Origin: a virus
Lineage: Duplodnaviria; Heunggongvirae; Uroviricota; Caudoviricetes
Length of the DNA stretch: 5,534 bases
Virus record (IMG/VR): IMGVR_UViG_2660237953_000006
Strand: one strand, 5' to 3'
In this document: piece after piece, positions 136 to 618 of the stretch
How the letters are laid out: each line of letters starts with the position of its first letter
How positions within the stretch are numbered: position 1 is the first letter of the stretch
Notes under the pieces: model-generated
Seen by the model: only the letters and a program-made list of their open reading frames with translations
What the model was told of the DNA's origin: nothing
The model's database searches: none
Made by a program: the position numbers and the translations under genes

Positions 136-618
136 TTAATCATCATTAATATCTTTCATATTCAATTTGCAATTTTCGTAGGTCACTCCCGACTCGCCAT
201 TAACATTAACTCCAGCTCTGATATTCCCGTTTTCTTTTACATCTACAAAAAACTGGCCTCTTGGCATCTTGAACGCAAATGTAAAACCAACAGTATCTGA
301 ATCAAAATCATCATCTTTATATATTGGGATCAAAAATGTCATCGTCGCTGGTGATGCATTGTTTGCAAAATCAAATACACCTATACTTTTGCCGAATTCA
401 TAAGAAGCTTTTCTCAATATAATCGCACCGCTGGCAGAAGGGGATGGGCACGATATCCTCAGTTGTCTGAATCCATCTGTATCCAAGTCAACGTCATTAT
501 CTGCAGATGTTTTAACGTTACTAATAAATCGTGAAACAATCTCCTCATTTGTTAGTATTTTCGCCTGAGCACAGCAAGAGGTTAATATTGCAACCGTCAT
601 TAAAAATGGCTTTATCAC
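136..618 (-). CDS. Predicted secreted lipoprotein of unknown function (160 aa); AT-rich cargo/moron gene downstream of the tape measure gene
   Basis: Intact ORF. The N-terminus MIKPFLMTVAILTSCCAQA has a charged n-region, a hydrophobic core and a lipobox-like L-T-S-C, with an alternative AQA signal-peptidase I site. The start is GTG at 616..618, preceded by GGAG (627..630) at 8-nt spacing; an in-frame ATG at 598..600 has no Shine-Dalgarno. Hand-counted 60-nt samples give about 33-45% GC here versus about 53% in the tape measure gene. Acidic, Asn/Asp-rich mature part; no family recognised. Confidence 0.7.
   Translation of the reverse strand: MIKPFLMTVAILTSCCAQAKILTNEEIVSRFISNVKTSADNDVDLDTDGFRQLRISCPSPSASGAIILRKASYEFGKSIGVFDFANNASPATMTFLIPIYKDDDFDSDTVGFTFAFKMPRGQFFVDVKENGNIRAGVNVNGESGVTYENCKLNMKDINDD

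Follow-up and report, generated by a model that had tools for sequence, protein, structure and literature searches.

The junction between the tape measure gene and the gpN-type hub gene of Mu-type contractile tail modules appears, judged from the gene layouts compared, to be a recurrent slot for small envelope proteins. One occupant of this slot is a 160-amino-acid open reading frame, termed here the cargo ORF, and it is firmly supported that this gene is accessory, horizontally mobile and sited in a variable position. The best overall explanation, put forward tentatively, is that it represents an optional slot cargo whose product, an exported barrel protein, would exclude other phages at the envelope of the lysogen. 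The analysis is centred on a window, meaning the whole 5,534-nucleotide stretch of viral DNA under study, and positions given without a contig name are those of the window. All window genes lie on the minus strand and represent the proximal half of a Mu-type contractile tail module. The features are as follows.

1-58, no strand assigned: terminal 58 bp of an IS1 copy, which truncates the downstream gene N (match to contigs L037 and L038)
59-91, minus strand: start of gene N, 11 codons (MDLPSLPSLSS), cut by IS1 (aligns to the intact gene in L001)
97-100, minus strand: ribosome-binding site GGAG of gene N, 5 nt before the ATG at 91 (sequence inspection)
108-130, minus strand: intrinsic-terminator-like hairpin, AAGCCGCCAG-AAA-TTGGCGGTTT, plus a T-run (terminator scan)
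136-618, minus strand: cargo ORF, 160 aa, GTG start, member of the exported-protein family phrog_5586
139-561, minus strand: predicted mature domain, 141 aa, pI 4.6, N-terminal helix and 8-stranded beta-barrel (AlphaFold2)
562-618, minus strand: predicted signal peptide, residues 1-19, MIKPFLMTVAILTSCCAQA, with a hydrophobic core, K3 and two alternative processing sites
574-585, minus strand: lipobox-like LTSC, residues 12-15 (regular-expression match; present in the window clade only)
619-685, minus strand: AT-rich 67-nt spacer, the left boundary of the inserted segment
627-630, minus strand: ribosome-binding site GGAG of the cargo ORF, 8 nt before the GTG (sequence inspection)
686-2635, minus strand: tape measure gene, 649 aa, flanking the slot on its upstream side (PF10145, E=1e-44; phrog_28)
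2720-3055, minus strand: tail chaperone gene
3055-3411, minus strand: tube gene
3411-4969, minus strand: sheath gene, broken by a 95-N run at 4276-4370
4966-5127, minus strand: DUF2635 gene
5137-5493, minus strand: tail terminator gene, truncated (match confined to the C-terminal half of PF23840)

Gene N, the downstream flank, is a Mu gpN-like hub gene that is labelled DNA circularization protein in the related E. coli prophage L001 and matches PF07157 in relatives. Positions 1-135 are identical in L037 (S. flexneri SFBU1023) and L038 (E. coli ECMA0423), where the sequence beyond them displays InsA/InsB ORFs (PF03811, PF12759, PF03400) and the remainder of gene N is absent; the IS1 segment itself has thousands of matching sites across E. 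coli genomes. The right end of the window (~5464-5534) is an IS3-family terminus that includes the last transposase codons, with rve domains. This right-hand IS took the N-terminal third of the tail terminator gene, and the first codons of the 118-aa ORF at 5137-5493 are derived from the IS end. As IS ends are found at both borders, the window represents a 5.4-kb prophage remnant; the prophage is without gene N, baseplate genes and head genes. Many Shigella contigs of ~5.2-5.3 kb encode the same cargo protein, which is consistent with an IS-bounded remnant.

Several other properties of the surrounding sequence were noted. By comparison with L037, the 95-N run in the sheath gene stands for ~33 nt of real sequence and has the look of masking or an assembly gap and not of a biological feature; in L001 an IS4-like ISEc60 element divides the sheath gene elsewhere. 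An overlapping extension of the tail chaperone gene in an alternative frame (~2636-2800, minus strand) begins near a seven-T run and runs slightly past the start of the tape measure gene, to near 2630. An overlapping-frame layout is the usual programmed-frameshift arrangement of tail assembly chaperones. Positions 4561-8480 of L037, downstream of the ORF, carry IS1, an IS3-family element and a DUF4376 tail-fibre-assembly fragment, then an IpaH-type NEL E3-ligase gene followed by an IS4-like transposase, and the IpaH-type gene together with this IS context places the remnant in an ipaH-island-like region.

The cargo ORF matches phrog_5586 over its full length (E=1e-88) and has homologs in ~50 clusters. 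Within two lineages dN/dS is 0.2-0.7, with small substitution counts. Together, these observations indicate a real gene and not a chance open reading frame. Identical copies of the protein number in the hundreds and are found in Shigella and E. coli. The initial annotation, made from the sequence alone, described a 160-aa ORF placed after the tape measure gene in the same orientation, with its own GGAG ribosome-binding site and a GC content below that of the tail genes. All of this is confirmed: the ORF has a GTG start and a 67-nt spacer, GGAG is found at 630-627, and GC is 36.9% (GC3 31%) as against 49-56% (GC3 46-59%) in seven tail genes.

That the gene had been inserted after the tape measure gene, as was also proposed, is borne out by its deviating composition and by an empty junction in close relatives. 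In two E. coli prophages, L002 and L003, the tape measure stop codon is followed after 15 nt by the start of gene N, and the ~580-bp segment formed by the ORF and hairpin is missing. Among E. coli prophages with an empty junction, gene N is 96% identical and the tape measure gene 80-96% identical to those of the window. Eleven of 50 complete E. coli genomes with this lineage have the slot filled, and in most of the others nothing interrupts the junction. A survey of the best 80 viral contigs encoding a gpN homolog, 77 of which contained the tape measure gene, answers the suggested question of whether the locus is empty or variable in related prophages: both are seen. In these 77 tail modules the junction is empty 51 times (gaps of 1-54 nt), holds the query family 10 times and holds other inserts of 0.45-0.68 kb 16 times, counts that represent rough proportions only, as the sample includes near-duplicates. 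In one viral contig (L015, ~3221-4000) IS1 has inserted into the cargo ORF, with a 9-bp duplication of the target, CGTTAAAAC, on its flanks. A contrast in identity was observed in L013 and L016, whose tape measure protein is 75% identical to that of the window and whose cargo and gpN are each 96% identical; this points to recombination with a breakpoint either inside the tape measure gene or at its end.

The other inserts represent six families that have no sequence or profile relation to the query family:

L051: classical LAGC lipoprotein
L087: signal-peptide protein family
L091: signal-peptide protein family
L107 and the L081 group: signal-peptide protein family, phrog_8976
L106 and L110: N-terminally anchored family, phrog_5485
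L103: two-helix (2-TM) bPH_2 membrane protein, PF03703, phrog_3707

All seven slot families are AT-rich (31-41% GC) and, with N-termini judged by eye, envelope-targeted. The PHROGs category of phrog_3707 is 'moron', and no known function or defence-system match was found for the six other families. Two more groups, L080/L095 and L104/L105, belong to the query family at a remote level (hhalign probability 90% and 60%, respectively). Two candidates were set aside during this comparison. H70 is not an alternative cargo, a deletion having simply brought together gene N and head genes; the L081 group, taken for inserts devoid of an open reading frame, encodes a GTG-started signal-peptide protein.

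Members of the query family that reside in tail modules are found in E. coli, Shigella, Salmonella, Citrobacter, Serratia and Yersinia, and their position in the slot is constant down to ~37% identity. Their GC content is 34-41% versus 44-59% in the flanks, which is 10-22 points lower in every branch. L043 carries a tightly packed gene, with gaps of 16 and 17 nt and without a hairpin, in an arrangement that resembles an ordinary operon. Distant members, with 24-31% identity, are located outside tail modules in phage-plasmid-like contigs of up to ~39 kb, where they adjoin IncFII RepA, a ParC-like gene, ParA, a CI-type repressor and toxin-antitoxin pairs, and their GC content matches the surroundings. 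A location beside plasmid-maintenance genes indicates that the cargo protein is not a tail part. Four such contigs (L007, L008, L009 and L047, the last from a Pantoea host) have the homolog in a maintenance region with a RecA-dependent nuclease, DUF1064, and MazEF or Gp49/HTH toxin-antitoxin pairs; IncFII RepA is seen in L008 and L009. The query family is known so far in Enterobacterales only.

A Yersinia enterocolitica copy (L005, 5975-6003) has an upstream ATG (MKKPIYLCL...) that is one base out of frame with the called start, which suggests a 1-nt indel in the signal peptide and either a pseudogene or a sequencing error. Three long adhesin-like proteins with repeated matches to one 40-residue part of the profile were rejected as spurious: P0018 is made up of cadherin/Big repeats, the only domain in P0020 is CHU_C and P0017 is without a Pfam match. 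The name 'DUF2850', given to a Salmonella fragment in one source, was likewise discarded, as family members gave no Pfam match supporting it.

The cargo protein begins with MIKPFLMTVAILTSCCAQAK, and its export, predicted from this N-terminus, is firmly supported. The sequence displays K3 followed by the core PFLMTVAI. A PS00013-type lipobox regular expression, in which the pattern [LVI][ASTVI][GAS]C may lie at positions 15-35, matches at Cys15, the shortest allowed position; after the cysteine, A-Q-A↓K (the arrow marks the cleavage site, and A-Q-A comprises residues 17-19) aligns with the A-x-A↓K sites of homologs. The initial annotation had predicted a lipoprotein. The hydrophobic signal peptide and the LTSC motif agree with that prediction, but the lipobox cysteine is missing from homologs outside the clade formed by E. 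coli, Shigella and Yersinia and is thus not conserved in the family. SCC is kept throughout group A and in Yersinia, and one group-A variant shows VQA↓K instead of AQA↓K, a change that leaves the signal peptidase I site valid. In all the remaining branches the signals lack a cysteine, are of the signal peptidase I type and end in A-x-A↓K, with, for example, the sites SFA↓K, ALA↓K, VFA↓K, VSA↓K, SHA↓K and LA↓K, and these signals indicate that the family overall is a Sec/signal peptidase I periplasmic family. For the protein of the window clade, lipid anchoring via Cys15 has about even chances.

The mature domain was modelled with AlphaFold2. A run with 8 close sequences was unusable (pLDDT 43), and adding distant homologs fixed the model: with 16 diverse sequences, pLDDT is 86.8 and pTM 0.82. 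C57 and C150 are among the invariant residues in the family alignment and probably form a disulfide. Core motifs and this cysteine pair are kept across 24% to 99% identity. A Foldseek search with the model gave no match at E <= 0.001 in PDB or BFVD. Searches of Pfam (E<=0.1), NCBIfam, PADLOC and PDB sequences found no relative, homologs are named only 'hypothetical protein', and phrog_5586, to which a function is not assigned, is the sole significant match in PHROG. The earlier impression that the mature protein might be undescribed therefore agrees with the Pfam, NCBIfam and PADLOC results, and the structure prediction and structural search that had been advised yield a confident but generic barrel with no specific structural relative. 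The modelled fold would fit a periplasmic binding or inhibitor protein and points to no activity.

A hairpin lies between the cargo ORF and gene N (108-130; -14 kcal/mol, z = -3.7), and none of 200 shuffled sequences is as stable. Equivalent hairpins are found in other branches of the cargo family, and unrelated cargos have among themselves almost one and the same hairpin, AACCC(A/G)CTTCGG(T/C)GGGTTTTTTT. Gene N is preceded by a hairpin and T-run in most of the occupied slots (24 of 26) and, where the junction is empty, in 34 of 51 cases. The presence at empty junctions indicates mostly a feature of the slot or backbone, with the cargo placed upstream of it; in the window lineage the empty sites are without the hairpin, and there it comes and goes with the cassette. 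A terminator belonging to the gene itself, as initially described, may thus be present within the window lineage; in the wider group the hairpin is often a backbone element. Cargo-free junctions with a GC-rich hairpin and T-run include L055, L063, L069, L074, L088, L101, L114 and L116. The hairpin at empty junctions may attenuate the tail operon internally or serve as a conserved joint for cassette exchange.

A scan for sigma-70-like promoters found none in positions 1-1000, a lenient weighted scan gave no good candidate, and inspection of aligned spacers revealed no convincing or positionally conserved promoter for the window cassette; consensus scans can miss real promoters. A 9-of-12 promoter-like match is present at the 5′ boundary of the cassette in 10 of 26 occupied slots (window cassette excluded) and in none of 51 empty junctions, a weak contrast, as AT-rich DNA inflates such matches. 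Morons in the sense of Juhala and Hendrix are segments of extra DNA between adjacent genes that deviate in composition, carry a promoter and a terminator of their own, and are expressed from the repressed prophage (PMC3594210). The cargo ORF is extra DNA between genes that are adjacent in relatives, and its composition is unlike that of its neighbours, a contrast that holds in all tail-slot branches. The moron signature initially assigned to it is therefore retained as to extra DNA and deviating composition, but no upstream promoter of its own was found for the window cassette, and the hairpin may be its own terminator only within the window lineage.

The sequenced carrier phage vB_EcoM-720R4 is lambdoid, with both cI and the antiterminator Q located upstream of lysis, head and tail genes that are in one orientation. 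In lambdoid late regulation, Q-modified transcription should ignore a terminator-like hairpin. On the preferred explanation, the cassette is carried by temperate phages of the lambdoid kind that combine a head of HK97 type with a contractile tail of Mu type. The product would be a Sec-exported acidic protein of ~15.5 kDa that forms a periplasmic 8-stranded barrel, probably with one disulfide. In the window clade a lipid anchor at Cys15 is possible and, with no Asp at +2, would direct the protein to the outer membrane. Presumed to be expressed in the lysogen, the barrel would act in the envelope against incoming phages: it would block genome injection at the tail-tip/tape-measure step, or else mask a receptor from the periplasmic side. 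In the lytic cycle the hairpin after the cargo gene would be read through by Q-antiterminated late transcription, and unmodified transcription would stop there, ahead of the baseplate genes. The envelope targeting of every slot cargo is the strongest indirect clue to function, and an exclusion or host-benefit role, as put forward in the initial annotation, stays reasonable because every slot cargo is an envelope protein. Points against this explanation are that no promoter was found, that the hairpin often belongs to the backbone, that the gene in L043 is tightly packed and that the fold is generic. In Pfam, PHROG and PADLOC the protein has no similarity to known exclusion or defence proteins, and dN/dS of 0.2-0.7 represents moderate constraint only, with no sign of arms-race diversification.

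Some of the same observations would suit a late-expressed envelope protein of benefit to the phage, made only on the late tail transcript and acting in lytic growth, for example by masking receptors against loss of progeny on debris, as with T5 Llp, or by tuning the timing of lysis from the periplasm. Such a function is unlikely. It fits an ORF that is co-oriented with and directly downstream of the tape measure gene, the packing in L043 and the failure to find an independent promoter, and the backbone hairpin may simply attenuate baseplate-gene expression; it fits less well with distant homologs in plasmid-maintenance regions that are active in the prophage state, with promoter-like sites at occupied and never at empty boundaries, and with a strong AT bias of the kind typical of horizontally moved, separately regulated genes. 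Slightly less probable again is a factor for host fitness or virulence, in which the barrel would shield the lysogen envelope from non-phage threats, be it by inhibition of lysozyme or peptidoglycan hydrolases in the manner of PliC/MliC or by serum resistance in the manner of Bor. The protein is not a member of the MliC/PliC family by sequence or profile similarity, it has an extra N-terminal helix relative to PliC/MliC, and its structural similarity to them is no better than that to avidins or designed barrels, so that a specific fold match is absent.

Decay of the window prophage raises the question of a drifting, functionless passenger, at least in this dead remnant. The loss of gene N, baseplate and head genes, the IS elements at both ends, the copy split by IS1 in L015 and the Yersinia copy frameshifted in its signal peptide are what drift would produce, but the ORF is intact, dN/dS is below 1 in several lineages, the core motifs and cysteine pair persist throughout the family and Shigella and E. 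coli hold hundreds of identical copies; a passenger is accordingly rather improbable. A structural or assembly component of the contractile tail is very improbable. The cargo family is neither universal, nor cytoplasmic, nor tail-like in composition: it is absent from two thirds of related tail modules, some with 96%-identical flanks, a cleavable signal peptide is present in all members, unrelated envelope proteins occupy the same slot, homologs exist outside tail modules and GC lies far under that of the tail genes. The constant position between tape measure and hub genes is the one observation that would suit a structural role. Exclusion of other phages by an optional, exported slot cargo is thus retained as the preferred explanation. 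A more extended proposal, which is doubtful, is that, in temperate phages of Enterobacterales with an HK97-type head and a Mu-type tail, the tape-measure/gpN junction is a dedicated envelope-cargo slot of at least seven families that would form a swappable superinfection-exclusion repertoire directed against injection, a step that the flanking genes' products perform. The query family would then be a new class of exclusion protein, a periplasmic barrel able to switch from a soluble to a lipid-anchored form and back.

Envelope-acting prophage cargo decides which other phages infect a strain, and this is of relevance to phage therapy, phage typing and the ecology of Shigella and E. coli. The analysis defines an uncharacterised exported family and a fixed slot with six further uncharacterised families of small envelope proteins. 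If some of the cargos are exclusion factors, the slot would provide a positional rule for new ones, together with ~7 single-gene candidates; if they are not, the cargo ORF represents an ordinary accessory gene in a decayed prophage.

The closest functional precedent is gp15 of HK97, a YebO-like superinfection exclusion protein. HK97 gp15 is a moron product of the envelope that blocks genome injection in a manner dependent on the tail of the incoming phage (PMC3594210). Like the cargo ORF, HK97 gene 15 is an extra gene in a lambdoid tail operon, lies beside the tape measure gene, deviates in GC content and encodes an envelope product. Gene 15 is upstream of the tape measure gene, however, and the cargo ORF is downstream; gp15 is a small inner-membrane protein whose gene has its own promoter and terminator, whereas the cargo product is a predicted 141-aa secreted barrel with no sequence relation to gp15 and no promoter detected for its gene.

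Further precedents are Cor (phi80/N15/HK022/T1) and Llp (T5), outer-membrane lipoproteins of ~60-80 aa that block FhuA. They resemble the cargo family in being small phage-encoded exported proteins that act on the envelope from its periplasmic face and have genes close to those for the tail or for receptor binding, and the likeness in a lipobox-like motif is limited to the window clade. The cargo protein differs in the lack of any sequence, profile or fold match and in being about twice the size, and most members of its family are not lipoproteins. Lambda Bor and Lom, envelope proteins of lysogenic conversion, similarly represent prophage cargo in or near late genes, but neither Pfam Lambda_Bor nor another match was obtained with the cargo protein. 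Rousset et al., in 2022, reportedly described accessory-gene hotspots of P2-like phages and P4 satellites. The slot is like these hotspots in being a fixed site between conserved phage genes that is either empty or filled with unrelated alternative cargo. It differs in its location at the tape-measure/gpN junction of Mu-type tails, in holding a single gene of ~0.5 kb per cargo, and in cargo families that are envelope-targeted throughout and gave no match to known defence systems. Publications describing the protein or the slot were not found in literature searches by accession and topic. Morons and accessory genes that encode envelope proteins are a well-known kind of element, to which the observation of the slot is an addition.
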